Positions 27,605 to 48,262 are shown, counted from the first letter of the stretch. The stretch: DNA of 64,000 bases from an uncultured bacterium (GCA_905215645.1 CAJMQS010000002.1:65186-129185); one strand, 5' to 3'. Notes: generated from the sequence alone by a model not told the origin. A program made the numbers and translations.

Positions 27605-27695
27605 GGAGAGTTGTCCGAGTGGTTGAAGGAGCACGCCTGGAAAGCGTGTATACGGGATAACCGTATCGAGGGTTCGAATCCCTCACTCTCCGCCA
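27605..27695 (+). tRNA. tRNA-Ser (anticodon GGA)
   Basis: Cloverleaf with long variable arm, anticodon loop CTGGAAA, T-loop GGTTCGAATCC, 3' CCA encoded. Confidence 0.9.
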
Positions 27696-27733: not shown

Positions 27734-27859
27734 CCGGCGGACTGCAAGAGTGGGTCCTGCGCAATGGAGGCCCGTGAACCTTGTCAGGTCCGGAAGGAAG
27801 CAGCAATAAGCGGATACCCCCATGTGCCGCAGGGGTGCCTGCCCTTGCAGCCCGCCGGG
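27734..27859 (+). ncRNA. ffs: signal recognition particle RNA (small 4.5S-type SRP RNA)
   Basis: Universal domain-IV sequence GTCAGGTCCGGAAGGAAGCAGC. 5' CCGGCGGACTGCAAG pairs with 3' CTTGCAGCCCGCCGG. Terminator hairpin plus T7 follows. Confidence 0.8.
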
Positions 27860-29968: not shown

Positions 29969-30056
29969 TGGCGGATGGGGAGGGATTCGAACCCTCGGTA
30001 CCTTGCGGTACACTTGATTTCGAGTCAAGCACCTTCGACCACTCGGACACCCATCC
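29969..30056 (-). tRNA. tRNA-Ser (anticodon CGA)
   Basis: Reverse complement gives a cloverleaf with long variable arm, anticodon loop CTCGAAA, GGTTCGAATCC T-loop, CCA. Confidence 0.9.
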
Positions 30057-31589: not shown

Positions 31590-31886
31590 TCTCTAACAAA
31601 AAAAGCTCCCGCCCCCTGCAGGGACGAAAGCATCGTGGTACCACCCGGCTTCGCCTGGCGAACCAGGCCTCTCGAGCACGCGAAAATTCGGATGCTCCAG
31701 TGCTGTAACGGGCACTCCCGGATGACCTACTGCTGTTCAATCATCTGCTCCAAGGCCATGTTCCCTTTCTCCGCCGCTCTTCCTTTCACCCCAGTGGAAG
31801 CTCTCTGTGCCGGCCTGCAAAAAGTACTCTTCTTTTCATCGCAGGTATCTCTATCAAATTGCTTTCAATTTAGCACAGAAAATTCC
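31590..31886 (-). ncRNA. T-box riboswitch leader (probably Met-specific) with promoter and terminator, controlling metA
   Basis: On the minus sense: promoter TTGACG-N17-TAAATT; F-box CCGTTA (plus 31705-31712); T-box GGGTGGTACCACG (plus 31634-31648); then terminator hairpin and T7 before the metA RBS. Confidence 0.7.
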
Positions 31887-36569: not shown

Positions 36570-38132
36570 TTGCTGCAGATTTCTGAAACTGCCAAAGAAA
36601 AAATCCGCGGCCAATTCCCGATTTTCCAGGAAGCGGCCCATGCTTTTTATGCCAAAGAACTGCCTCCGGGCAAATACAAGGGGACTTCCGGGAAATTCGG
36701 CTCCTATGGAGAACGGGGCGCCAACAGCAGCATGCTCCGGCTCCGTTTTTCCGGCGGAGCCATCAGCCAGGCCCACATGGCTTTCCTGGCCCAGGCTATC
36801 GATAAATACCAGGTGACCCTAGCCCACTTCACCACCGGGGAAGCCCTCCAGCTCCACCATCTAGGGGAACAGACAGTCCTGAATCTCTATCAAGACTGCT
36901 TCAACCAAGGCATCTACTGTGCCGGTGCCGGCGGGGACAATCCCCGGAACATCACGGCCAGCCCTCTCCATGGAGTGGAAAAAGGCGAACCCTTTGACAT
37001 GACCCCGGCCATCCGGGCTGCTTCCAGCTTTGTCATCAACCTGATCCCGGAACTGAAGCTGCCCCGGAAGTACAAGATCAGCTTTCCCAACGGGATCGAC
37101 AACGAAGGCCATGCCACCTTCAAAGATCTAGGTTTTGTAGCCCGTCCAGACGGCACTTTCGACGTGTATGCCGGCGGCGGTTTCGGCGTCAACGGCAGCC
37201 GGTTCGGGGTCCTCATCGATACCCAGGTGGATCCCCGGGACCTGTCCTGGTACATCCTGGGCTATGCCCGGGACGTGTACATGAAATACGGAGACTATCA
37301 GCATCGGGGTACAGCCCGTTCCCGGTTCATCCTGGCCAAAATGGGTGAAGATCCTTTCCGGCAGGCTGTCCGGGACGCAGCAGCCCGTTGCCGGGAAGAA
37401 GGGATTCCCCGGCTGGAACTGGAACCCATCCCGCCCCTGGCCAAAACTGGAAAAGACGATTCCGTCCTGACGGATCCCCGGATCCGCAGCCAGAAACAAG
37501 AAGGGCTGTACTATGTAGAATACAAACCCCTGGGCGGTGTGCCGGATATCCAGGTGTTCCAGCAGCTGCTGAAAGAAGCCTCGCAGATGGAAGGAGCCCA
37601 GCTGCGGCTGAACGCGGACGAAACTTGCTACATCATCAACCTGACAGCGGAAGAAGCCCGGAAGATCGCAGCCCTGACAAAAAAAGACACAGCTCATACC
37701 GCCTTTGAACATTCCGTCAGCTGCATCGGTGCTACCGTTTGCCAGCAGGGACTGTGCGATTCCCACGGGACCCTGGCCCGGATTGCAGCATTCCTGAAAG
37801 AACAGGGCGTGGATACCCGGTATCTGCCCAAATGCCATTTTTCCGGCTGCCCTTCCACCTGTACCGTCCAGTCCCTGGCAGCGTTGGGTTTCCGGGGCGC
37901 TTTCACCCTAGTGAATGGAGAACGGGCCAGTGCCTTCCAGATATACGCCGGCGGAAACTATGCCTACGGAAAAGAAAAGATCAGCGAGCCCCTGGCCCTC
38001 ATCGCCACCGCCCGACTGCCCCGCTTTTTCCTGGATCTGAACCAGATCCTACTGGATGCCAAGCAGCCTTTCTCCCAATGGTATCCGGATCATGAGGATG
38101 AGTTTTTGGAACTACTGAAGAAATATGCGTAA
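36570..38132 (+). CDS. nitrite/sulfite reductase-family protein (ferredoxin-like half domain plus siroheme/4Fe-4S domain)
   Basis: NIR_SIR and NIR_SIR_ferr domain pattern with Cys cluster (CIGATVC...C...CPSTC). TTG start after GAAGGAG. Confidence 0.65.
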   Translation: MLQISETAKEKIRGQFPIFQEAAHAFYAKELPPGKYKGTSGKFGSYGERGANSSMLRLRFSGGAISQAHMAFLAQAIDKYQVTLAHFTTGEALQLHHLGEQTVLNLYQDCFNQGIYCAGAGGDNPRNITASPLHGVEKGEPFDMTPAIRAASSFVINLIPELKLPRKYKISFPNGIDNEGHATFKDLGFVARPDGTFDVYAGGGFGVNGSRFGVLIDTQVDPRDLSWYILGYARDVYMKYGDYQHRGTARSRFILAKMGEDPFRQAVRDAAARCREEGIPRLELEPIPPLAKTGKDDSVLTDPRIRSQKQEGLYYVEYKPLGGVPDIQVFQQLLKEASQMEGAQLRLNADETCYIINLTAEEARKIAALTKKDTAHTAFEHSVSCIGATVCQQGLCDSHGTLARIAAFLKEQGVDTRYLPKCHFSGCPSTCTVQSLAALGFRGAFTLVNGERASAFQIYAGGNYAYGKEKISEPLALIATARLPRFFLDLNQILLDAKQPFSQWYPDHEDEFLELLKKYA

Positions 38133-38144
38133 TATTATGGTTTA

Positions 38145-38200
38145 AACAAACAATCCGTCAAAGCTCTTCAATGTCGGCAGAGTTTTGACGGATTATTTGT
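38145..38200. terminator. long-stem bidirectional terminator hairpin
   Basis: Inverted repeat ACAAACAATCCGTCAAAG ... TTTTGACGGATTATTTGT (18 bp arms, 2 mismatches). Sits between convergent genes. Confidence 0.75.
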
Positions 38201-38240
38201 TTATATGATAAAGGAGACTTGATTGCAAAATAAGTCAGAG

Positions 38241-40175
38241 TCACTTATCATTCTCATCCATATTTTCCAGTAATTTTCCAGACTTAATGAGTCCATACGC
38301 TTTTTGGATATCTTCCTGTATAGGGCGCAACCCCTCTAGTGTCGGGATTATACTGCGAATCGTATCGTATGCTTTCTGTGTATATCTGCCCAACCTCACA
38401 TTCCCCCTCAAATCCACAGCCTGTGCTGCATAAAGTGCTTCCATGCCCACAAGATACCGTAGATTATCGACCAGGTGCAGAGCTTTCGTTGTAACAAGAG
38501 GCAAGTTGCTGGCGTGATCTTCAATATAGCCTTCGATAGCAAAAAAATCAACAGAGGAAGGCGTTATGAGGAATCGATTTTCCGCATCTAAAGCAGAAAA
38601 AGCATCCTGAATCTGGGAATACCCATAGGATTCTCCATTTCTCGGTGCTAAAAAGCGGGTTAGACCTGTAAAATCAGGGTCTGCCATTTTTATCATGCGG
38701 TAATTAATCGTCCTGGACAGATGCCCCAAAGCGATAGAAAGCATCTCCACGGCTACAGCCAAGGAAGTCGTTTCAAAGTTGGATGTTACATACAGTTCCT
38801 GGGTTTCCGGGATAATACAAGGATTATCAGACGGTGAATTAATCTGGATTGCAAGGAACTTCTTAACCACTTCCAACGCATCTGTCACCGTTCCTGTAAT
38901 GGTAAAGCCTCCCCGGAAACTCAGGGAATCCTGAAGCGCTCGTTTGGAGTCCTTATCATACAGATAGCTGTCTTCCAAAAATTTCCGGCAACGGGCAGCA
39001 CACTTTTTCTGTCCTGGAAGCCCTCTCAGAGTATTGACATCCTGGCGCATGGCCTCGATGTTACCATTCAACCCTTCATAATCCAGACAATAAACCAAAT
39101 CAGACATAAAAAGTAAATCTTCAACTTCCTTTACCAAGATGGCTGTTGTACCTTCCCCCTGAGAATTGGAAAGCATAACCGTATGGGCATCTTTCAGCTG
39201 CCAATGATAAGGTTCCAGTCCTTCCTGTTCCATGGCCTCTCTGGCGCTTGTCTGCTGTCCCTTATAGTATACCTGGTTTTCTCCTGCAAAAGCCATCCCG
39301 ATATGGGTAATGGTCGTAATATCAGCTTCCCCAACTGATCCACGCCGGGGAACGCAAGGAGTAATTCCACGGTTCAGGAATTCTTTATATAAGTCAACCA
39401 GTTCGTCACTTGCACAAGAAGCCCCGATAAGCAGCGTATTCAGTCGGATGGCCATCATAGCTCGTACTTCTTCTATCGTATTGTAAGGTGGATATCCCAA
39501 TGCATGACTATAAATGACTTTTCTGTTTTCTTTTTCGATAAGGTTTTCTTTTACATCTCTGTCTTTATTCCACCCAACGCCTCGATTATACCCATAGATT
39601 GGCTTCCCATCATGGGCCAACCGTTCCATCGTCTCGCGGCCTCGTTTTACCCGGTTCCATGCTTCTGGTTCAATAGCTACAGGATATCCTTCATAGGCAA
39701 TGAGGTTCAAATCATGAAGCGTAAGATTATGCCCATTTAAAAGAATTGGTTCCATTCTCTGACTCCTTTCCACTATTTCAATTGTTTGTCTCGTCGTATC
39801 CAGCCTGACGGTATCTCCCCTTCGCACTTTTCTGTAAAAATAAGGATCCACCCTATCCACCATAGGGACACCCATGATGATTGCAGTGGAAACCAATACC
39901 GTATCCGGTTCTTCTACAATAAAAGCCCGCGGAGCCGTTCCATGCTTTTCCAATTGATAGAGCCCGTCCATCTGGACAACAGAGCTACCTTTGCCACCCG
40001 GAAATACCAGTATCTTATCTTTGATGCTGATTCCATTAAGACAGTGATCTCGTTCCATAACTACACCGTCTTCAGGACGCACATGATAAAAAAGAATTTG
40101 ATCTGAGGAAATAAGGATTTCACCCTCAGCCGTACCTTTGGCTATTTCTCTGCACGCAAACACATTCATCATCAT
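38241..40175 (-). CDS. fusion protein: aconitase-X small 'swivel' subunit (DUF126) plus HAL/PAL-family lyase-like domain lacking the MIO triad
   Basis: N-terminal ~135 aa carry KILVFPGGKGSSV...PRAFIV (AcnX swivel signature). The rest keeps the HAL fold (GSVG..., QDSLSFRG, SDNPC, EGYIEDHASN), but the Ala-Ser-Gly MIO precursor reads Glu-Ala-Asp. Start after GGGAAAGG. Overlaps the upstream AcnX-L gene by ~4-10 nt. Confidence 0.65.
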   Translation of the reverse strand: MMMNVFACREIAKGTAEGEILISSDQILFYHVRPEDGVVMERDHCLNGISIKDKILVFPGGKGSSVVQMDGLYQLEKHGTAPRAFIVEEPDTVLVSTAIIMGVPMVDRVDPYFYRKVRRGDTVRLDTTRQTIEIVERSQRMEPILLNGHNLTLHDLNLIAYEGYPVAIEPEAWNRVKRGRETMERLAHDGKPIYGYNRGVGWNKDRDVKENLIEKENRKVIYSHALGYPPYNTIEEVRAMMAIRLNTLLIGASCASDELVDLYKEFLNRGITPCVPRRGSVGEADITTITHIGMAFAGENQVYYKGQQTSAREAMEQEGLEPYHWQLKDAHTVMLSNSQGEGTTAILVKEVEDLLFMSDLVYCLDYEGLNGNIEAMRQDVNTLRGLPGQKKCAARCRKFLEDSYLYDKDSKRALQDSLSFRGGFTITGTVTDALEVVKKFLAIQINSPSDNPCIIPETQELYVTSNFETTSLAVAVEMLSIALGHLSRTINYRMIKMADPDFTGLTRFLAPRNGESYGYSQIQDAFSALDAENRFLITPSSVDFFAIEGYIEDHASNLPLVTTKALHLVDNLRYLVGMEALYAAQAVDLRGNVRLGRYTQKAYDTIRSIIPTLEGLRPIQEDIQKAYGLIKSGKLLENMDENDK

Positions 40176-41395
40176 CCACATACCTTTCCCAAAATAGCCT
40201 CATAAATACATTGTTCCACATCCTGAACCGTCAGTGTCACACCTGCACTCGTCATATAATAGGCTGCTTTAGGCGAATCTGTAACACCTAACAAGCCTTT
40301 GAGAAAATGCCAGCAATTGACTTCATCCACACAAGTATGAGGAATTAACTTACCACCCAATCGCTGGATCTGGGCCTGCAGGCCATTTTTATCTGCCTGT
40401 TCAATGACTTCAACGGAAGTCAGGATATAAATGGGGACAGCCGCTGGCTTAGTAAGCAGACGACCTACCCGTTCCACCTGGGAATACGTATAATGCGGAC
40501 AGCCCAAGATGCAGAAAGATATTTTTTGGCCGGATACTGGATGCTCTTTGGCTCGCAGATCATCCAAATCACCTTGTGTTATCCTAACCGTACGTAGCGG
40601 AGCTTGATTTCCAAAAGCATCCTTTTCATCTCGCACCAAAGGAGTCACCCCTGGCACGGCATAAATATCATAATTGCCAGAAACATTTAAAGAAGCCCCT
40701 AAAGCAATCAGTGCTTCCACAGGAATCAATTGAGGCAAGCCGAAGAAAACTGGATTTCCTCGTCCTATTTTCTTTCCAAGCATTCCTAACAGAGCAAAAT
40801 CTCCCTCTTTCTCTACCCTGGCATCTACTTCAACCGCTACGGTCCCAAATCGGTTCTTTTCAAAGAGCATCCCATATTCTGGCACGCATCCAGTGATGGC
40901 CGCACATAAAGCACTGGCAGCACTTTCTCGATTGGTTTTTGCTCCCAGGACGGCGTTCACGAAAATTGTTGCACTAGTTTCAGAGAATGCACACACTTCA
41001 TTTTTTCTCGGCTTGTTGCTGTATAGGTAAGGAGTACAACAATAAGTCATCGTAGCACCAAGTTCTCTATACACTTGATCTACCCGTTCCATATGAGTCT
41101 TTGCTGTATCCGATAGGATCGACGCAAATGTGCCCACAGAGTATCCTGGATTGACCGTTGGAGAGAGCCTGCAGACTGCTCCGGCCGACAAAAGACGGCT
41201 GGCAAACCATAAATCCGCCTCCTGTGCACTCAGTGAAACATGTGCTTTTTGGATAGGGACCATACGAGGTGCATCAAAGCATTTAGCAATTCCGACCTGG
41301 ATTTCCATGGCAAGGGCTACGCCCTTACCGTAAACACCATCCAGCATTTTTTGCTGCTCATCGGACAGGATCATTCCTCCAACCTCCCTGTTCAA
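40172..41395 (-). CDS. aconitase-X catalytic (large) subunit, DUF521/AcnX family
   Basis: N-terminal LSDEQQKMLDGVYGKGVALAMEIQV motif typical of AcnX large subunits. 407 aa. Start overlaps the stop of the upstream gene (ATGA). Confidence 0.6.
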   Translation of the reverse strand: MNREVGGMILSDEQQKMLDGVYGKGVALAMEIQVGIAKCFDAPRMVPIQKAHVSLSAQEADLWFASRLLSAGAVCRLSPTVNPGYSVGTFASILSDTAKTHMERVDQVYRELGATMTYCCTPYLYSNKPRKNEVCAFSETSATIFVNAVLGAKTNRESAASALCAAITGCVPEYGMLFEKNRFGTVAVEVDARVEKEGDFALLGMLGKKIGRGNPVFFGLPQLIPVEALIALGASLNVSGNYDIYAVPGVTPLVRDEKDAFGNQAPLRTVRITQGDLDDLRAKEHPVSGQKISFCILGCPHYTYSQVERVGRLLTKPAAVPIYILTSVEVIEQADKNGLQAQIQRLGGKLIPHTCVDEVNCWHFLKGLLGVTDSPKAAYYMTSAGVTLTVQDVEQCIYEAILGKVCG

Positions 41396-42312
41396 TTATG
41401 CTTATCCACAGAAAGGTTCCCCGCTTCCTTATCATATCCAGAGTAAAACCCTCTTCCCGATTTCATGCCCAATTGGCCTCGCTCAATCATTTCTTTTAGT
41501 TTTGCGGGAGGTTTATCCCGTTCTTCTCCACTTGCCTCATAATACGATATTTCGATATTATAGATTGTATCGAGTCCAATAAGGTCCATAAGCTGGAATG
41601 GGCCGATATTGGTATTCCATTCCATTTTCCAGCCACGATCAAACTCTGCTGGATCCACATATCCATCAGCCCAAAGATGGAGACATTCCCGTTTGACAGC
41701 ACGCCATACACGATTGATTGAATAGCCTTTAATTTCTTTTTCAGTAATAACTGGTTCGAACCCCAATGTGTGATAATGGGCTATAGCCGCTTTCTTTGTT
41801 TTTTCTGAAGTGCTGGCATTCCACATCATTTCAAGATAATTATTGCGGATCGGATCATCATGATCAACGGAAAAGGTACACTTCCTGCGTTCCGGAGAAA
41901 CACGTGCATAAATATCACTCATAAGCAATGATGAAGTATTGGAATTGAGCAAACATCCAGGTGGACAAATTTTATCCAGCTGTTCAAATATATCTTGTTT
42001 CAAAGCTAATTTTTCAGGGACATTCTCCACAACAAGTTCTGCATCCTGACAGGCTTCTTCCAGACTCCTTGCATAACGGATACGGTTCTTTACCCCATTG
42101 GCTTCTTCTGCATTCAGTCTGCCTTCCTGGATAAAGTAAGTCAGCCATTTCTCCACCTTTGCCTGACAAGTCAAAATAGATTTTTCGGTCCGACTGTAGC
42201 CCGTAACTTGTTTTCCATACAAAGCATTCCGAAAAGCAATCATGGAACCTTGCGTTCCAATTCCCACAATCGTTACATTTTTAATTTTATCAACTCCAAT
42301 AGGTATTGCCAT
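41392..42312 (-). CDS. 3-hydroxyacyl-CoA dehydrogenase-family oxidoreductase (3HCDH / L-carnitine dehydrogenase-like)
   Basis: Rossmann N-terminus (VTIVGIGTQGSMIA) and C-terminal GPFQLMDLIGLD motif of the 3HCDH family. Strong RBS. Confidence 0.7.
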   Translation of the reverse strand: MAIPIGVDKIKNVTIVGIGTQGSMIAFRNALYGKQVTGYSRTEKSILTCQAKVEKWLTYFIQEGRLNAEEANGVKNRIRYARSLEEACQDAELVVENVPEKLALKQDIFEQLDKICPPGCLLNSNTSSLLMSDIYARVSPERRKCTFSVDHDDPIRNNYLEMMWNASTSEKTKKAAIAHYHTLGFEPVITEKEIKGYSINRVWRAVKRECLHLWADGYVDPAEFDRGWKMEWNTNIGPFQLMDLIGLDTIYNIEISYYEASGEERDKPPAKLKEMIERGQLGMKSGRGFYSGYDKEAGNLSVDKHN

Positions 42313-42360
42313 AAATCTTCATCCTTTCCTTCCTGAACCTGTAAATAAATACTTATTAAA

Positions 42361-42903
42361 TTAAAAAGTCCTTTCGATGATATTTCCATCGGCCGGGATT
42401 GCTATGTAGCGGACTTTTGTATTTTCTACAAGTTCTCCATAAAAAGCAATGTAATAGGGACGATAGATGGAACGCAGCTGTAAAACCTCCAAGGTGACAT
42501 AACTTCCAATTTGTCGTCTGATCATCCGTCCAGCCAATCTTTTGGCATTTTCAATCAGCTTGTCCTGGGGAATTTCTGTCGTTTGCACCTGTGCCGGATC
42601 TGTAATTTGCAGAGATTGCGTCTTTATTGGTTTTTCTAAATAAGCTGGCGTTCCTCTGGTTCCTTCTGCCAGCATGAGGATTTTCTGTTTCCGGGGAAGA
42701 GATTCCTTTTGGGTAAAGATTTTCCGTAGAAAAGTGTCCATATATGTCATTTCAAAAGTAATTTCCTTACTTTCGATATACATCAATTTCAAGTTTATTT
42801 TCTTTTTCCCCAGAAGAAGGCGCCCCAGGAAATTGCCTCTTTTCTCGGCCACTTCCATAGCTTCTTCTTCGTTCATCGTCTTGGGTACCACTTGTATTTT
42901 CAT
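42361..42903 (-). CDS. hypothetical protein (no recognisable family)
   Basis: 180-aa ORF with GGGGGAG RBS, inside the operon. Confidence 0.45.
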   Translation of the reverse strand: MKIQVVPKTMNEEEAMEVAEKRGNFLGRLLLGKKKINLKLMYIESKEITFEMTYMDTFLRKIFTQKESLPRKQKILMLAEGTRGTPAYLEKPIKTQSLQITDPAQVQTTEIPQDKLIENAKRLAGRMIRRQIGSYVTLEVLQLRSIYRPYYIAFYGELVENTKVRYIAIPADGNIIERTF

Positions 42904-42933
42904 ATATCTCCCCCTGTTAGGAATTTTCTCTCC

Positions 42934-44577
42934 TCAGGCTTTTCTTTTGCTGAATTCCCGTACTTCAAACCAGTAGCGGGCGAATACACCAAATGTGATC
43001 AGCATGGCAATGCCCGGTGCCAAAATACCTACAAGAGCATCGACCTGATGGACCATGCCATAACCGAAGATGATCGCCAAAACAGCATAGAGAGCGACCA
43101 AAGCTCCATCTACACCGAACCATTCCACCGGCTCAATCTGCTGTTCTCCAGAGGAACCAACAGAGTCATCACAATATACTTTTCCAAATCGGTTGCCAAT
43201 CACATAGGTGATAAAAGAAATAGGCAAGGCAATGAGGAGAGCATCCACCTTTCCTCCCAGGATATCAATGGAAATCGGATAATAATTAAAGTAAATCCAA
43301 GATAGAGAGCCAAAAATCATGCTGGACAAGCCACCCACATCTGTTTTTCTGGAATCTGAAAGGATTGCACCCAATACCGGAACAAAAAGGCCACACATAG
43401 ACAAACTGTTGATGAAAAGGAATGCATCATACACAAGGGGAAAGCTGAACGCCGTTCCGAGTCCGATGATACCGAATATAATACAGCTGATTCTTGTAAT
43501 GTTGATACTTTGTCTGTCCGACAGAGGATGTTTACGATAGACATTGATGATGTCCCGGGATACAATTTCTCCTCCAATCAAGAAATACGAATCGATTGTA
43601 GAAATAATGGCACCCATGATTCCGAAAACAAAAAGGCCTCTTAGCACAACCGGTAAATTAGAAAGGACCAGCTGCACATAGGCGACTTCCGGCTGGATTT
43701 CCAGTCCAGGATGGATCGTACGGATAAGCATTGCCGTAGTGATCAGAACCATGTCGAAAGAAAGCCAGATGGAGAAACACATCAGCATAGCCCGTTTTCC
43801 CGTACGAGGTGAATTAGCTGCGGTAAAGCGCTGATAAAAAGATGGATCCTTATATACATTGATACACAATACGACAAGGCAGATAGCCCGTCCAACTGGA
43901 GTCCCGCCCAATGGGGTCAACATTTGAGGAGCAACTTGGCTTAATACCTGGTTGATACCTGCAAATCCTCCTACTCCAAAGTAAACTTGGGGAAAAGCGG
44001 CGCAGACAGATGTAATCATCAGAAAAAAGAAAATCATATCCGTTGCAGCTACACCCATAAGTCCGCCTAAACAAGTGATACCAGTGGAAATAATAACCAC
44101 AGCAGCTGCAACCAAAAATTTATTTGCATTCCAGGCAGCCACGCCCACATAGCCAGTCGCTGCGATTTCTGCAATAGAAAGACATGATACAACGAGGATA
44201 ACAGCTCCAATCAAAGAAGCGGTTCTTCCATAATATCGATTGATCAGTTCCGTCATTGTCGTATTCACTTTTACGGAAATACGAGGTGCTACCCAAAGTG
44301 CCAGAGGAAAGCGGACCAGATGAGCACAAATGGACCAAATAAAGAAAGCTGAGACACCCATCGTCGTTGCATAGCCAATGGTCCCAATGACACCAGCCCC
44401 TCCGTACCAGGATGCTACAAGCGTCCCGACTGCCAGAGACCAGGGAATCGACTTATTTGCTTGATAGAAACTATCCATATTCCGAGAAGTTTTGCTAAAA
44501 TGTTTTCCTACTAGGAATATGCCGATGACACACAACAGAACGGTAAGATTGTCAAGAAACGTTAACATACCCTTCAC
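42934..44577 (-). CDS. sodium:solute symporter (SSS family)
   Basis: 547 aa, ~13 TM, SSS-type topology and motifs. Confidence 0.75.
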   Translation of the reverse strand: MKGMLTFLDNLTVLLCVIGIFLVGKHFSKTSRNMDSFYQANKSIPWSLAVGTLVASWYGGAGVIGTIGYATTMGVSAFFIWSICAHLVRFPLALWVAPRISVKVNTTMTELINRYYGRTASLIGAVILVVSCLSIAEIAATGYVGVAAWNANKFLVAAAVVIISTGITCLGGLMGVAATDMIFFFLMITSVCAAFPQVYFGVGGFAGINQVLSQVAPQMLTPLGGTPVGRAICLVVLCINVYKDPSFYQRFTAANSPRTGKRAMLMCFSIWLSFDMVLITTAMLIRTIHPGLEIQPEVAYVQLVLSNLPVVLRGLFVFGIMGAIISTIDSYFLIGGEIVSRDIINVYRKHPLSDRQSINITRISCIIFGIIGLGTAFSFPLVYDAFLFINSLSMCGLFVPVLGAILSDSRKTDVGGLSSMIFGSLSWIYFNYYPISIDILGGKVDALLIALPISFITYVIGNRFGKVYCDDSVGSSGEQQIEPVEWFGVDGALVALYAVLAIIFGYGMVHQVDALVGILAPGIAMLITFGVFARYWFEVREFSKRKA

Positions 44578-44585
44578 TTCCTTTT

Positions 44586-46112
44586 CTAAAATTGCAGTTT
44601 ACCTACGACGGTTTCCACCACATCTATATATTTTCTCTCTTTGATTTGAGCAGACACACTTTCAATCAAGGGAGTAAGCGGAGCATCTGTTTCCAAGACA
44701 GGAACAACTTGTCGTAAAAGCTGATATACCTTCCCTGTAGCAGAAGATGGAGCAAGCATGTCATAGCAATCAAGTGCCTGCCCATCACAGATCAATTCAA
44801 TGGCAATGATATAGCTCCCCATTTGTATTAAATCGTACGCTTTTTTTGCTGCATTATATCCCATACTGATATAATCTTCTTGGTTCGCACATGTAGTTAA
44901 ATTATCCACCACAGCTGGATGAGAAAGGATTCTCATTTCTCCCAGCAGACCTGCAGCAGTATATTGGATCATCATAAGGCCATCATTATATTCCGCATTC
45001 TTGTTTAAGAAAGCAGGAAGTTCACTGACAAGACGATTCAATAGCCTATCGATACGGCTTGCAGTCATTTTACATAAATCGGTCATTGCGATTGCAAGGA
45101 AATCAGATGCCATTCCCAGATAAGAACCATCTGCATTACAACCCATCAAAGCAACAGCTTTCCCGTTATTTTCTTCAAAAATCAAAGGATTATCCACCGA
45201 AGAATTCAATTCAATGGCCAAAGACTGCAATCCATCTTTGACCGCTTTTTTTACGGCCCCATGCAGTTGGGGAATACAACGGATGGACAATGCATCCTGC
45301 ACACGATGGCCACGATATTTTTCTACAATCTCACTGTCCTGCAAAATGGCCCGCACGTTACTGGCAGTCCTGACTTGATCCACATGTGGCCGCGCTTCCA
45401 TAATACGGTCATCCATAGCCATCAAAGTCCCTTTGAGCACTTCCAGGCTAAAGGCACCGCTGATATCTGCTGTCAACGCCAGAGTTACTGCATCATACAG
45501 TGCAAGTGCAGCAAAAGCAGTTACAGAAGTCGTTCCAGAAACAATAGTCAATCCCTCTTTGGAAGAAAGAACAATTGGCTCAAGTCCAGCCTGAAACAAG
45601 GCTTCTTCCCCACTTAACAGTTTTCCCTTGTACCAAGCTTTTCCTTCCCCAATAAGGACCATACCAATGTGGGCTTCAAGAGAAATATATCCAACGGAGC
45701 CATGTCCTGGAACTCTTGGAACAACGTTCCGATTTAACATTTCTTTTAAAAGTTCCAGTGTTTCCAATCTGATTCCCGTATGTCCAGATCCAAAATGCAA
45801 CAGCATTACAAACATCATAGCTCTGGTACATTCTTCATTGATTGGCTCTCCCACAGCACAGGTATGGGCAAGGATATGATTCCTCTGGATATGGATCCGG
45901 TCTTCTTCCGGAATGAATTTTCTCCAATTGTCGCCCAATCCTGTCGTCACACCATAAATTGGAATTCCTCCTTTGCTGAATTCATCTACAAAATCTCGGC
46001 ATTTTTGAACTCGTTGGATATATTCATCTGAAAATGCAACTTGACTGTGATATCTTGCCACAGAAACTACATCTTCCAATGTATTCTTTCCATCCAGTAT
46101 AATGATTTTCAT
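44586..46112 (-). CDS. HAL/PAL-family (aromatic amino-acid lyase fold) protein lacking the MIO-forming Ala-Ser-Gly triad
   Basis: Conserved HAL blocks (GHGSVG..., QDALSIRCIPQLHGA, VDNPL, NQEDYISMG), but the MIO tripeptide position reads Tyr-Ile-Ser. The ORF-track start at 46136 is a TTG. ATG at ~46112 (MKIIILDGK) follows GAAAGGAA. Confidence 0.7.
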   Translation of the reverse strand: MKIIILDGKNTLEDVVSVARYHSQVAFSDEYIQRVQKCRDFVDEFSKGGIPIYGVTTGLGDNWRKFIPEEDRIHIQRNHILAHTCAVGEPINEECTRAMMFVMLLHFGSGHTGIRLETLELLKEMLNRNVVPRVPGHGSVGYISLEAHIGMVLIGEGKAWYKGKLLSGEEALFQAGLEPIVLSSKEGLTIVSGTTSVTAFAALALYDAVTLALTADISGAFSLEVLKGTLMAMDDRIMEARPHVDQVRTASNVRAILQDSEIVEKYRGHRVQDALSIRCIPQLHGAVKKAVKDGLQSLAIELNSSVDNPLIFEENNGKAVALMGCNADGSYLGMASDFLAIAMTDLCKMTASRIDRLLNRLVSELPAFLNKNAEYNDGLMMIQYTAAGLLGEMRILSHPAVVDNLTTCANQEDYISMGYNAAKKAYDLIQMGSYIIAIELICDGQALDCYDMLAPSSATGKVYQLLRQVVPVLETDAPLTPLIESVSAQIKERKYIDVVETVVGKLQF

Positions 46113-46169
46113 CTTCTTATTCCTTTCTCTTATCAAATCATCTATGAAAGTCTATCTTTATAAATTTAT

Positions 46170-46185
46170 TGCAAATACCTTGCCA
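46170..46185 (-). promoter_or_regulatory. sigma-54 (-24/-12) promoter
   Basis: Minus-sense TGGCAAGGTATTTGCA gives GG-N10-GC with TGGCA / TTGCA elements, ~57 nt upstream of the HAL-like gene ATG. Confidence 0.7.
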
Positions 46186-46229
46186 AAATCATGAAATGTG
46201 TTTCAGAGTTAAAAAATATATCTTTTATT

Positions 46230-46247
46230 TTCTGGTTTATACCAGAA
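46230..46247. promoter_or_regulatory. palindrome TTCTGGTTTATACCAGAA, candidate enhancer (UAS) site for the sigma-54 activator
   Basis: Perfect 6-bp arms, about 45 bp upstream of the -24 element. Confidence 0.3.
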
Positions 46248-46328
46248 ATCTACAAATAATGTCATTTCAAAGTCCTTTATTATGAAAAAAGCAGTTGCCC
46301 ATCACCATTTTAGAGAATGCCTTATAGC

Positions 46329-46370
46329 AAAAAAATCTGGCTGCCAAAATCTCTGGCGCCAGATTTTTTA
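46329..46370 (-). terminator. terminator of the sigma-54 activator gene
   Basis: AATCTGGC...GCCAGATT hairpin, including the TCTGGCGCCAGA palindrome, followed by a T7 run on the minus strand. Confidence 0.6.
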
Positions 46371-48053
46371 TTCTTTTTCTTCCTTAATTCCAAACTTTCG
46401 TAAATGATATTGAAAATTCTGCCGTGACAAATGCAATTTAGCTGCTGCCTTTGTCACATTTTTCCCACAAGCCTGGTACGTTTCCCAAAGGATACTTTTT
46501 TCATATTCATTGACAAGTTCTGTCAGCCCCTTTTCATTTTTATTAGGAACCTCCGTAACAAGAGGTTGGGGATGTTGTTGCAACACGGAATCTTTTTTAG
46601 CATGACGAAGGAAGTAATAAGGAAAATCACTCTCATCAAGGGTCCCATCTTTAGAAAGACTCATTGCATAGCCCAGAATGTGGAAAAGTTCCCGTACATT
46701 CCCGGGCCACTGATGCTCTCTAAGCCGTTGCCAAAATCCGGGCGTAATTTTCCGAATAGGCATTCCAGCATACTGAGGATAATTATCAATAAAGAAATGG
46801 ACAAGCTCGGGCAGATCCTCCAGTCGATTCCGCAAAGGGGGGATTTCAATAATAACAGAAGCCAGGCGAAAGAACAAATCCTGCCGCATCTTTCCATTCT
46901 GGCTCATTACATATGCGTCCTCATTGGTTGAAGAAATGACCCGGACATCAACAGGAATATACTTTGTACTGCCAATGCGCTGCAGAGTATGCTCCTGCAG
47001 AACTCTGAGCAATTTCGCCTGCATAGCAGAGCTCATTGAATTGACTTCATCCAAAAAAAGTGTTCCATGATTTGCTGCTTCAATCAGTCCGATTTGATCC
47101 GAACTTCCAGTAAAAGCCCCCTTCACTGTCCCGAAAAGCATACTCTCTATTAAAGATTCTGGAAAAGCTGCACAGTTGACAGCAATGAATTTTTCTCGGC
47201 GTCGAGAGCTGTATTGATGGATGCTCTGTGCAAATATCTCCTTCCCGCTGCCCGTTTCTCCTTGTATTAAAATATTGATATCCCGTTCTGCCATCCGCTT
47301 TGCTAACTGGATGGTATTTTGCAAAGCTCCTGAAGAACCAATCAAATCATCGAATGTGTAGTGGACTTCCTTGCTCACCGCAAATCGTTCCGTCATATGC
47401 CGAGTCAGGATTTCTTCTATTTGCTTCAATTCAGAAATCTGAGATTTGACTGCGTTCATATCCTGCTCAACAGAAACAGCTCCTAGAATAGACCCATCTT
47501 CTCGGAATACAGGATATCCTTCTGTCACTGTCATCAGATCCTTGCCCGTTGTCGATTTGTACCGATCATATCGATGATGGACGTTACTCAGATTCCTAAG
47601 GACTGTTAAAATAGCACTATAATTTGGGTCAACATGAAAAATATCCAACAAATTTTGTCCTTCGACAGATTCCTTAAGAGAGATTCCCAGAAGATGCTTG
47701 CTTGCTTTATTGAAAAATTGAATGGTTCCATCTTGGGCATATAGCTGAATCACATTGGGAGATTGATCAAGAACTGCTTCCATGAGTTTTTCCCGGACCG
47801 ACTCTTGCCGAAGCAATAAACAGATTCCGTAAAATACTTGAAAAGATATATACGAAAAGCGTCTTTCAAGCCACTGGACTTCTCCCGCTTCTGGTCGGAA
47901 TACCATACTGCTCACTTCAGAAAGTTTCTGACCGATTAAATTTCTGCAAACCATTCTGATTTCCGAATTTTCTCCTAATTTACTGCCAAATTCTACTTGT
48001 CGTACAAATCCTCCTTCACTCAAAAGTAATGCGATATCAAAAATCACCTCCAT
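46368..48053 (-). CDS. sigma-54-dependent transcriptional activator (sensor/PAS + AAA+ + Fis-type HTH)
   Basis: GETGSGKE Walker A, GAFTGS sigma-54 contact motif, arginine finger region, C-terminal HTH (AAKLHLSRQNFQYHLRKFGI). Start after GGGAGGGAG RBS. Confidence 0.85.
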   Translation of the reverse strand: MEVIFDIALLLSEGGFVRQVEFGSKLGENSEIRMVCRNLIGQKLSEVSSMVFRPEAGEVQWLERRFSYISFQVFYGICLLLRQESVREKLMEAVLDQSPNVIQLYAQDGTIQFFNKASKHLLGISLKESVEGQNLLDIFHVDPNYSAILTVLRNLSNVHHRYDRYKSTTGKDLMTVTEGYPVFREDGSILGAVSVEQDMNAVKSQISELKQIEEILTRHMTERFAVSKEVHYTFDDLIGSSGALQNTIQLAKRMAERDINILIQGETGSGKEIFAQSIHQYSSRRREKFIAVNCAAFPESLIESMLFGTVKGAFTGSSDQIGLIEAANHGTLFLDEVNSMSSAMQAKLLRVLQEHTLQRIGSTKYIPVDVRVISSTNEDAYVMSQNGKMRQDLFFRLASVIIEIPPLRNRLEDLPELVHFFIDNYPQYAGMPIRKITPGFWQRLREHQWPGNVRELFHILGYAMSLSKDGTLDESDFPYYFLRHAKKDSVLQQHPQPLVTEVPNKNEKGLTELVNEYEKSILWETYQACGKNVTKAAAKLHLSRQNFQYHLRKFGIKEEKE

Positions 48054-48262
48054 CGCTATTCTCCCTCCCTGCTTTTATCCTTTGCTTAGTATACCATGGA
48101 ATTCCGCAATGAAAAAAGCTGTATTCTATTACGGCATTCTCCAGTAGCAATGAATCCCCCTTTGTTCATCTTTTTTTCTCTTTTCTGCCCCACTTTTTCT
48201 TCAACTTCGTCTTATGATGTATACTCAGTATTGTATGCATCAAAGAAAGGCAGGAAAAAGGA

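Follow-up and report, generated by a model that had tools for sequence, protein, structure and literature searches.

A 64,000-nucleotide stretch of DNA from an uncultured bacterium (the window, below) contains, at positions 38241–48053, seven open reading frames (ORFs) that all lie on the minus strand: a sigma-54 activator and six structural genes. Counting from the activator, the latter encode HAL1, a protein of the histidine ammonia-lyase (HAL) family; a sodium:solute symporter (SSS); a 180-residue protein; an NAD-dependent dehydrogenase of the 3HCDH family; the large subunit of an AcnX (de)hydratase; and a fusion of the AcnX small subunit (AcnXS) to a second HAL-family protein, HAL2. Pfam and NCBIfam profile searches recovered every family that an earlier note, made from the sequence alone, had placed here, at the same coordinates and on the minus strand. 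That note recognised no pathway in this mix of families, and the mix matches none in the literature searched. It also described seven tightly packed co-directional genes with overlapping stops and starts, and an AcnX split into large and small subunits. The shared direction is correct, and both subunits are present; however, the small one is not a gene of its own but the N-terminal ~140 residues of a 646-residue protein, so the structural genes number six. Overlap is possible only at the 3HCDH/AcnX large subunit junction (TTG start at 41395) and between the large subunit and the fusion; elsewhere the genes are separated by gaps of 17–48 nt.

The closest genome is that of Acidaminococcus massiliensis, whose cluster proteins are 90–98% identical to those of the window. 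The activator (561 residues; 46368–48053) has an N-terminal region, a PAS domain, an AAA+ domain carrying GAFTG, and a helix-turn-helix (Sigma54_activat, 213 bits, E = 2.7e-63; AAA_lid_14); its nearest NCBIfam family is PrdR, at 349 bits against a cutoff of 795. A terminator-like hairpin 3′ of its gene (46332–46367, minus strand; a 10-nt perfect inverted repeat, then a T run) is kept in A. massiliensis. Downstream of this hairpin, 58 nt 5′ of the HAL1 ATG, lies TGGCAAGGTATTTGCA (46170–46185, minus strand), a pattern match to a sigma-54 promoter with −24 GG and −12 GC. The window has two occurrences of the pattern, where chance would give 0.43. The activator-HAL1 spacer has diverged from that of A. 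massiliensis, yet the promoter element, TTTTGGCAAG(G/A)TATTTGCAAT, is intact and is the only long conserved block. Three other genomes (loci L012, L014, and L015, the last with two operons) have four activator-linked operons between them, each with an equivalent motif in the space between activator and first gene, and in Lawsonibacter and Pseudoflavonifractor the sequence TGGCA-N6-TTGC(A/T) is found, on the correct strand, in the spacer of every operon behind a homologous activator. Because the promoter is conserved across the A. massiliensis, Lawsonibacter, and Pseudoflavonifractor spacers, sigma-54 control of the operon, proposed earlier from a near-consensus promoter 5′ of the first structural gene and an activator encoded upstream, is well supported by sequence. 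A perfect inverted repeat 5′ of the promoter, TTTCTGGT-N4-ACCAGAAA (46229–46248), was considered as a candidate activator-binding site and dropped, as it is not conserved in A. massiliensis. Internal terminators and sigma-70 promoters in the operon are no more numerous than chance would give.

HAL1 (508 residues; 44586–46112; Lyase_aromatic, PF00221, 508 bits, E = 2e-152) and HAL2 (residues ~146–646 of the fusion; 38241–39746; PF00221, 400 bits) were both said in the earlier note to lack the Ala-Ser-Gly precursor of the 4-methylideneimidazol-5-one (MIO) prosthetic group. Alignment to HAL and ergothionase confirms this, in two different ways. The HAL1 loop reads GSVGY---ISLEAH, a three-residue deletion that removes the ASG(D) segment; the HAL2 loop reads GSVGE-ADITT, with the length of the MIO-less ergothionase loop, which is one residue shorter. 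The best solved relative of HAL2 is Td_ETL (PDB 6S7J), the ergothionase of Treponema denticola, at 531 bits and 48.7% identity, against ~230 bits for true histidine ammonia-lyases. HAL1 is 37–41% identical to true HutH and 30% identical (193 bits) to ergothionase. Both score below the hutH equivalog cutoff of 539 bits (HAL1, 474; HAL2, 312). HAL1 is a MIO-less lineage independent of ergothionase and HAL2. Both proteins align with the cytoplasmic Td_ETL from residue ~3, which leaves no space for a signal peptide.

Both proteins keep Tyr53 and the Gln and Arg that bind the carboxylate. The positions that align with His83 and Glu414 of HAL, cited as imidazole-nitrogen ligands, are likewise retained. 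Tyr280 (Pseudomonas putida HAL numbering) is Leu in every MIO-less group, HAL1 and HAL2 included; Asn195 (same numbering) is Ser in HAL1 and in ergothionases with Lys at position 384 (Lys-type), and Leu in HAL2. MIO-containing neighbours retain both Tyr280 and Asn195. The likeness of HAL2 to ergothionase, Tyr280Leu in both proteins, and Asn195Ser in HAL1 are hallmarks that agree with the earlier idea of MIO-independent elimination from a trimethylammonium betaine. Because these MIO-less changes are shared and the Tyr53, His83, and Glu414 positions are kept, HAL1 and HAL2 are probably trimethylammonia-lyases for imidazole betaines. Neither, however, is likely to be an ergothionase in the strict sense. 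Position 384 is Asp in HAL2 and Tyr in HAL1; Lys384 is reported to be essential for ergothionase, where it binds the thiolate of ergothioneine (bioRxiv 10.1101/2025.08.13.670108, citing Maurer 2019). In the Shewanella lyases described in that preprint and a second one, sulfur-free substrates pair with Asn384 (hercynine) or Gln384 (N(pi)-methyl-hercynine). At this position HAL2 has a charged residue, Asp; Asn is found there in tandem paralogues from related genomes. HAL2 also carries the signature of a non-Lys subfamily: Cys113, His190, Leu194, Ser308, Gly377, Glu/Gln407, and Tyr441.

The AcnX large, catalytic subunit (400 residues; 40172–41374; Pfam AcnX, 345 bits, E = 6e-103) scores 194 bits to the archaeal mevalonate-5-phosphate dehydratase of T. 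kodakarensis (7CNR) and 97 bits to hydroxyproline dehydratase. The small, swivel domain occupies residues 1–140 (39762–40181; AcnX_swivel_put, 87 bits) of the fusion ORF (646 residues; 38241–40181), and scores 82 bits to 7CNR_B. The three Cys ligands are found in YCCTPY, GCPH, and HTCV, and other active-site residues in SETS, PKAAYY, and GKGSSV, the last of which holds the catalytic Ser. Equivalents of Glu129, Ser131, Lys361, Tyr365, and Asn79 are retained in the large subunit, and Ser130 is replaced by Thr. Both substrate landmarks are missing (residue roles and landmark sets from PMC8184944). The phosphate-binding loop of AcnX type IIb, Gly48-Val49-Ser50, falls in a four-residue deletion, and Asn53 is Ser; the ligands of the cis-3-hydroxyproline ring nitrogen are absent, with Thr72 replaced by Val in the small domain and Asp203 by Ser in the large subunit. 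The score for the hydroxyproline-type NCBIfam equivalog is 170 bits against a cutoff of 700. Because the catalytic set and all three Cys are kept while both landmark sets are gone, the protein is probably a competent (de)hydratase for a 3-hydroxy-acid/2-enoate pair and neither of the characterised AcnX enzymes, both of which act on 3-hydroxy rather than 2-hydroxy acids (PMC8184944). It would match the uncharacterised subclasses IIc–IIf, described as having neither landmark set (PMC8184944); the likeness is one of description, not of phylogenetic placement.

The fusion of AcnXS to the lyase is not an assembly error, because it recurs: at least 21 metagenomic contigs carry it, as does A. massiliensis, and other lineages have separately fused homologues. 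In one related Acidaminococcus metagenome-assembled genome (L013), the AcnX small subunit and the lyase are adjacent yet separate genes. The recurrent fusions suggest that the two proteins catalyse consecutive steps. In the literature searched, no link is made between AcnX and either ammonia-lyases or betaines.

Among the remaining structural genes, the 3HCDH enzyme (306 residues; 41392–42312) has both domains of the 3-hydroxyacyl-CoA dehydrogenase family (3HCDH_N, 112 bits; 3HCDH, 68 bits) and reaches none of the NCBIfam equivalog cutoffs. Among solved structures its best relative is the diketoreductase 4DYD, an enzyme with CoA-free substrates, and the island contains no gene for a CoA ligase or CoA transferase. 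The divergent SSS transporter (544 residues; 42934–44568; Pfam SSF, 59.6 bits, E = 3e-16) has PanF as its nearest NCBIfam family, at 69 bits, far under the cutoff for that family. In other genomes it travels with HAL1 and the 180-residue protein (42361–42903), a member of a rare orphan family for which Pfam and NCBIfam profile searches found no match.

The cluster is a strain-variable island of a gut Acidaminococcus, absent from some strains of the species. Its G+C content is 40–45%, against 53–60% in the flanks. Metagenomic contigs that encode the identical flanking hydrolase come in two forms, with and without the cluster. In the contigs without it (empty-site loci L093, L095, L098, and L100), the NIR_SIR and hydrolase genes are direct neighbours with a 56-bp terminator spacer between them. 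Homology between these contigs and the window ends at 38132 and restarts at 48155/48156; the island therefore measures 10,022 bp (38133–48154) and holds the whole cluster together with an operon-end terminator hairpin (38144–38202, minus strand; a 19-nt inverted repeat read from the sequence). No tRNA gene, integrase gene, or direct repeat was found at its ends. When island-positive strains are compared with island-negative ones, identity is 92–94% in the NIR_SIR flank and 98.4% in the hydrolase flank; because the former is less alike, a recombination tract may extend into NIR_SIR. The rest of the window contains housekeeping genes only, and no hut or rpoN genes were found there. Its T-box leader (31617–31848, minus strand), small signal recognition particle RNA (27748–27847, plus strand), and two tRNA-Ser genes (27605–27695, plus strand; 29969–30056, minus strand) are ordinary and unrelated to the island.

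A genome scan, with one genome per species, yielded 80 loci that were classed by residue 384 of the central lyase and by neighbours. Lys-type lyases account for 65 loci and are 43–53% identical; the other 15 have Asp, Asn, or Val at this position and are at least 54% identical. The neighbours divide accordingly. The 3HCDH gene adjoins the lyase in 15/15 non-Lys loci versus 1/65 Lys-type loci, and genes for both AcnX subunits stand beside the lyase in nine of the 15. Three further loci, found through AcnX homologues (L105, L106, and L108), have the same 3HCDH-AcnXL-AcnXS-lyase core, one of them as a bare four-gene module among housekeeping genes. In most Lys-type loci the lyase is instead accompanied by a BCCT transporter and a xanthine-dehydrogenase-like trio; these genes frequently form a tight operon (Fer2-FAD-Mo subunit-lyase-BCCT), and a BTAD regulator is frequently present too. 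An AcnX gene is found in only seven of the 65 Lys-type loci, and is 25–29% identical to that of the window. The molybdoenzyme trio and BCCT context is absent from the island; A. massiliensis holds both systems separately, a window-type cluster (L012) and a Lys-type molybdoenzyme/BCCT operon (L064).

Because the tight operon with Lys-type lyases is conserved, its molybdoenzyme is presumably thiourocanate desulfhydrase, and these operons would constitute the published gut ergothioneine route, described in the literature as ergothionase plus a reductive thiourocanate desulfhydrase. Many of them also contain a HAL1-like MIO-less paralogue (SVGY---LS ... IPQYTQA; Acidaminococcus L064 and L065; L028, L031, L032, L037, L040, L049, L062, L070, and L077), which hints at a companion lyase of the known ergothioneine route, possibly for hercynine. 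At 45% identity the molybdoenzyme large subunits cluster into four groups, leaving one singleton. A group with three members (L022, L025, and L026) is found only beside non-Lys lyase/3HCDH clusters, and may catalyse a ring-modifying step of an extended pathway. A ~335-residue protein (L007 4572–5579; L014–L018, L022, L025, and L026) has a double [4Fe-4S] domain at its C-terminus, the N-terminal ~260 residues being unassigned. Its gene recurs either between those for HAL1 and 3HCDH or adjoining the molybdoenzyme genes, and the island of the window lacks it.

Pseudoflavonifractor has two sigma-54 operons, 3HCDH-AcnXL-AcnXS-lyase(Asp)-lyase(Asn) and SSS-180-residue protein-HAL1-Fe-S protein; the window's operon is thus a merger of two modules. 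AcnX homologues ~50% identical to that of the window occur in several settings. A Blautia operon has one beside urocanase and a betaine-binding OpuAC protein; in C. malenominatum one is embedded in a complete hut operon; a Roseburia locus has one together with urocanase and amidohydrolases, the stretch seen containing no lyase gene; and C. symbiosum has one in a lyase-free operon, activator-3HCDH-AcnXL-AcnXS-transporter. LarA-like (Lar_N) genes adjoin AcnX homologues in two unrelated contexts (L103 14700–15929; L107 7698–8933), and D-2-hydroxyacid dehydrogenase genes are present in two AcnX-homologue loci (L103 and L104); these give a hint of 2-hydroxy acids. Dethiosulfatibacter and relatives have distant AcnX pairs (25–29% identical) near Lys-type ergothionase/molybdoenzyme genes (L010/L050, L046, L058, L074, L078, and L083), most of them alongside an MttB-family methyltransferase gene and some with a BCCT gene. 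These pairs were set aside as evidence, given their low identity and the Lys-type lyases beside them.

Together, these observations favour, with a slightly better than even chance, a reading in which the island, acquired horizontally, serves to break down a histidine-type N-alpha-trimethyl betaine other than ergothioneine and is inducible by its substrate. The substrate is likely hercynine or a ring- or side-chain-modified relative. The earlier suggestion of a betaine fits the OpuAC and ABC permease transporters of related clusters and the BCCT transporters of Lys-type operons. The PAS-containing activator would switch on the sigma-54 promoter, and the SSS transporter would import the betaine. 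HAL1 and HAL2, from two unrelated MIO-less lineages, would then eliminate trimethylamine, with Tyr53 as the base, to give an imidazolyl-C3 acid. The [4Fe-4S]-type AcnX, tied to HAL2 through its small subunit, and the 3HCDH enzyme would convert this acid between its 2-enoate, hydroxy, and oxo forms.

Two orders of these steps seem about equally likely. In order (a), the betaine would be converted to a urocanate-type enoate, then to a 3-hydroxy acid, and then to a 3-oxo acid. This is the sequence of import, elimination, hydration, and oxidation envisaged in the earlier note, and both the family precedent of these lyases, which make 2-enoates, and the recurrent AcnXS-lyase fusions speak for it. 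In order (b), an oxygenated betaine would be converted to an oxo acid, a hydroxy acid, and finally urocanate, which would enter the Hut pathway towards glutamate, the main energy source of Acidaminococcus. AcnX homologues beside urocanase and Hut genes, and lyase/3HCDH loci that have no AcnX close by, point to such a urocanate-ending route, which gains favour because the lyase alone would already yield urocanate from hercynine. The sequence first envisaged therefore survives as one of two.

Several points weigh against the betaine module as a whole or against one of its orders. Asp at position 384 is without characterised precedent, the known residues being Lys, Asn, and Gln. In six of the 15 non-Lys loci the lyase and 3HCDH stand without an AcnX gene inside 10 kb. 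The end product of order (a) is a beta-keto acid for which there is no conserved downstream enzyme, and this order leaves AcnX and 3HCDH looking superfluous because urocanate is already an intermediate of the Hut pathway. Order (b) requires a natural oxygenated betaine, and we know of none.

The most serious alternative separates AcnX and 3HCDH from the lyases altogether: these two would produce urocanate from an imidazolyl hydroxy or oxo acid taken up from outside, such as imidazole-lactate or imidazole-pyruvate, and the operon would simply gather enzymes that make urocanate. The lyase-free C. symbiosum operon favours this, as do the Roseburia and C. malenominatum loci, in which AcnX accompanies urocanase or the full hut set, and the genes for LarA-like racemases and D-2-hydroxyacid dehydrogenases near some homologues. 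However, the Lys-type lyases presumably also yield urocanate, and 3HCDH is found in one of their 65 loci but beside all 15 non-Lys lyases and beside the lyase in three further loci found through AcnX. Self-contained four-gene modules exist, the AcnXS-lyase fusions recur, and both characterised AcnX enzymes use 3-hydroxy rather than 2-hydroxy acids (PMC8184944). Since 3HCDH goes almost exclusively with non-Lys lyases, this parallel arrangement is rated below both consecutive orders and seems unlikely. A further alternative is a betaine without an imidazole ring. Hydroxyproline dehydratases of AcnX types I and IIa, the membership of carnitine dehydrogenase in the 3HCDH family, and PrdR as the nearest named relative of the activator could all be read as signs of proline or hydroxyproline betaine or of carnitine, as the earlier note listed; tryptophan or tyrosine betaine might be added. 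Such substrates are improbable, given the loss of both hydroxyproline-nitrogen ligands (Asp203 to Ser, Thr72 to Val; PMC8184944), the retained His83 and Glu414 positions in both lyases, scores of just 75–87 bits to carnitine dehydrogenase models, and related clusters that hold urocanase or Hut genes rather than proline genes.

Ergothioneine itself, also named in the earlier note, is suggested by the nearest solved relative of HAL2. The cluster would then be the known catabolic route, ergothionase followed by thiourocanate processing, with AcnX as the desulfurising enzyme, and Fe-S enzymes are able to desulfurise thio-heterocycles. That assignment is very improbable: the Lys384 reported to be essential is replaced by Asp in HAL2 and by Tyr in HAL1; all 65 Lys-type loci differ in context, mostly having the molybdoenzyme and BCCT, with only the seven distant AcnX genes among them; and A. 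massiliensis keeps its Lys-type operon apart from its window-type cluster. Finally, proteins that have lost their prosthetic group, one of them from an uncharacterised lineage, need not be lyases at all, and might be scaffolds, binding proteins, or catalysts of other chemistry, with AcnX and 3HCDH as the sole enzymes of the pathway. This is hardly credible for proteins that keep Tyr53, the catalytic residue, and the Gln and Arg for carboxylate binding, share their substitutions with proven trimethylammonia-lyases, and are strongly conserved in sequence over many genera.

If the betaine module is taken further, the AcnX subclass of the window may represent a third AcnX function, a urocanate-type imidazolyl-acid (de)hydratase complexed with a trimethylammonia-lyase. 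With 3HCDH it would form a new gut route from a histidine betaine to trimethylamine and urocanate; the betaine may be an uncatalogued one, such as a beta-oxygenated hercynine, and HAL1 would represent a second family of MIO-less betaine-lyases, one that evolved independently. This fuller proposal is tentative, and we think it rather more apt to fail than to hold.

Two AcnX functions are known, and the lyase-AcnX-dehydrogenase module, found in Acidaminococcus, Oscillospiraceae, Lachnospiraceae, Blautia, and rumen bacteria, offers a testable handle on subclasses IIc–IIf. Whether residue 384 is Lys or one of Asp, Asn, and Val, taken with operon context, predicts the substrate class of hundreds of proteins now annotated as histidine ammonia-lyase. 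Trimethylamine from gut bacteria is the precursor of trimethylamine N-oxide, and strains of one species with and without the island provide a natural experiment for the phenotype. In the literature searched, cofactor-less HAL-fold lyases are partnered only with reductases or a desulfurising enzyme. What is new relative to the described trimethylammonia-lyase systems is the AcnX/dehydrogenase branch and the second MIO-less lyase lineage.

One of the closest known systems is the T. denticola ergothionase (6S7J), with which HAL2 shares its fold, MIO-less loop length, Tyr53, Tyr280Leu, and almost half of its residues (48.7%), so that 1,2-elimination of trimethylamine is expected. HAL2 differs in having Asp for Lys384 and a signature of its own (Cys113, His190, Leu194, and others), and in its fusion to the AcnX small subunit. 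Lys-type operons have the molybdoenzyme trio and BCCT where the window has AcnX and 3HCDH, and BTAD-type regulators where it has sigma-54 control. The Shewanella enzymes Swoo_3913 and SO_3299, trimethylammonia-lyases for histidine-betaine and N(pi)-methyl-histidine-betaine, likewise lack MIO and have a non-Lys residue at 384 (Asn, Gln); they convert sulfur-free histidine betaines to urocanate-type 2-enoates and trimethylamine (bioRxiv 2025/2026). Those lyases, however, are periplasmic and coupled to flavocytochrome c or urocanate reductase for respiration, whereas the partners here are a hydratase and a dehydrogenase, and the island contains no reductase gene. The AcnX of the window shares with the characterised enzymes the large/small architecture, the Ser base, and the carboxylate- and 3-hydroxyl-binding residues, and it has three Cys ligands as 7CNR does; unlike the characterised enzymes, it lacks the phosphate-binding loop and the hydroxyproline nitrogen ligands, and its small subunit is fused to a lyase. 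In overall logic, order (a) would resemble the aspartase/fumarase/malate dehydrogenase and methylaspartase/mesaconase sequences: elimination of an amine to give a 2-enoate, hydration by an Fe-S enzyme, and NAD-dependent oxidation. The enzyme families are unrelated, and the substrate here would be a monocarboxylic heteroaryl acid.

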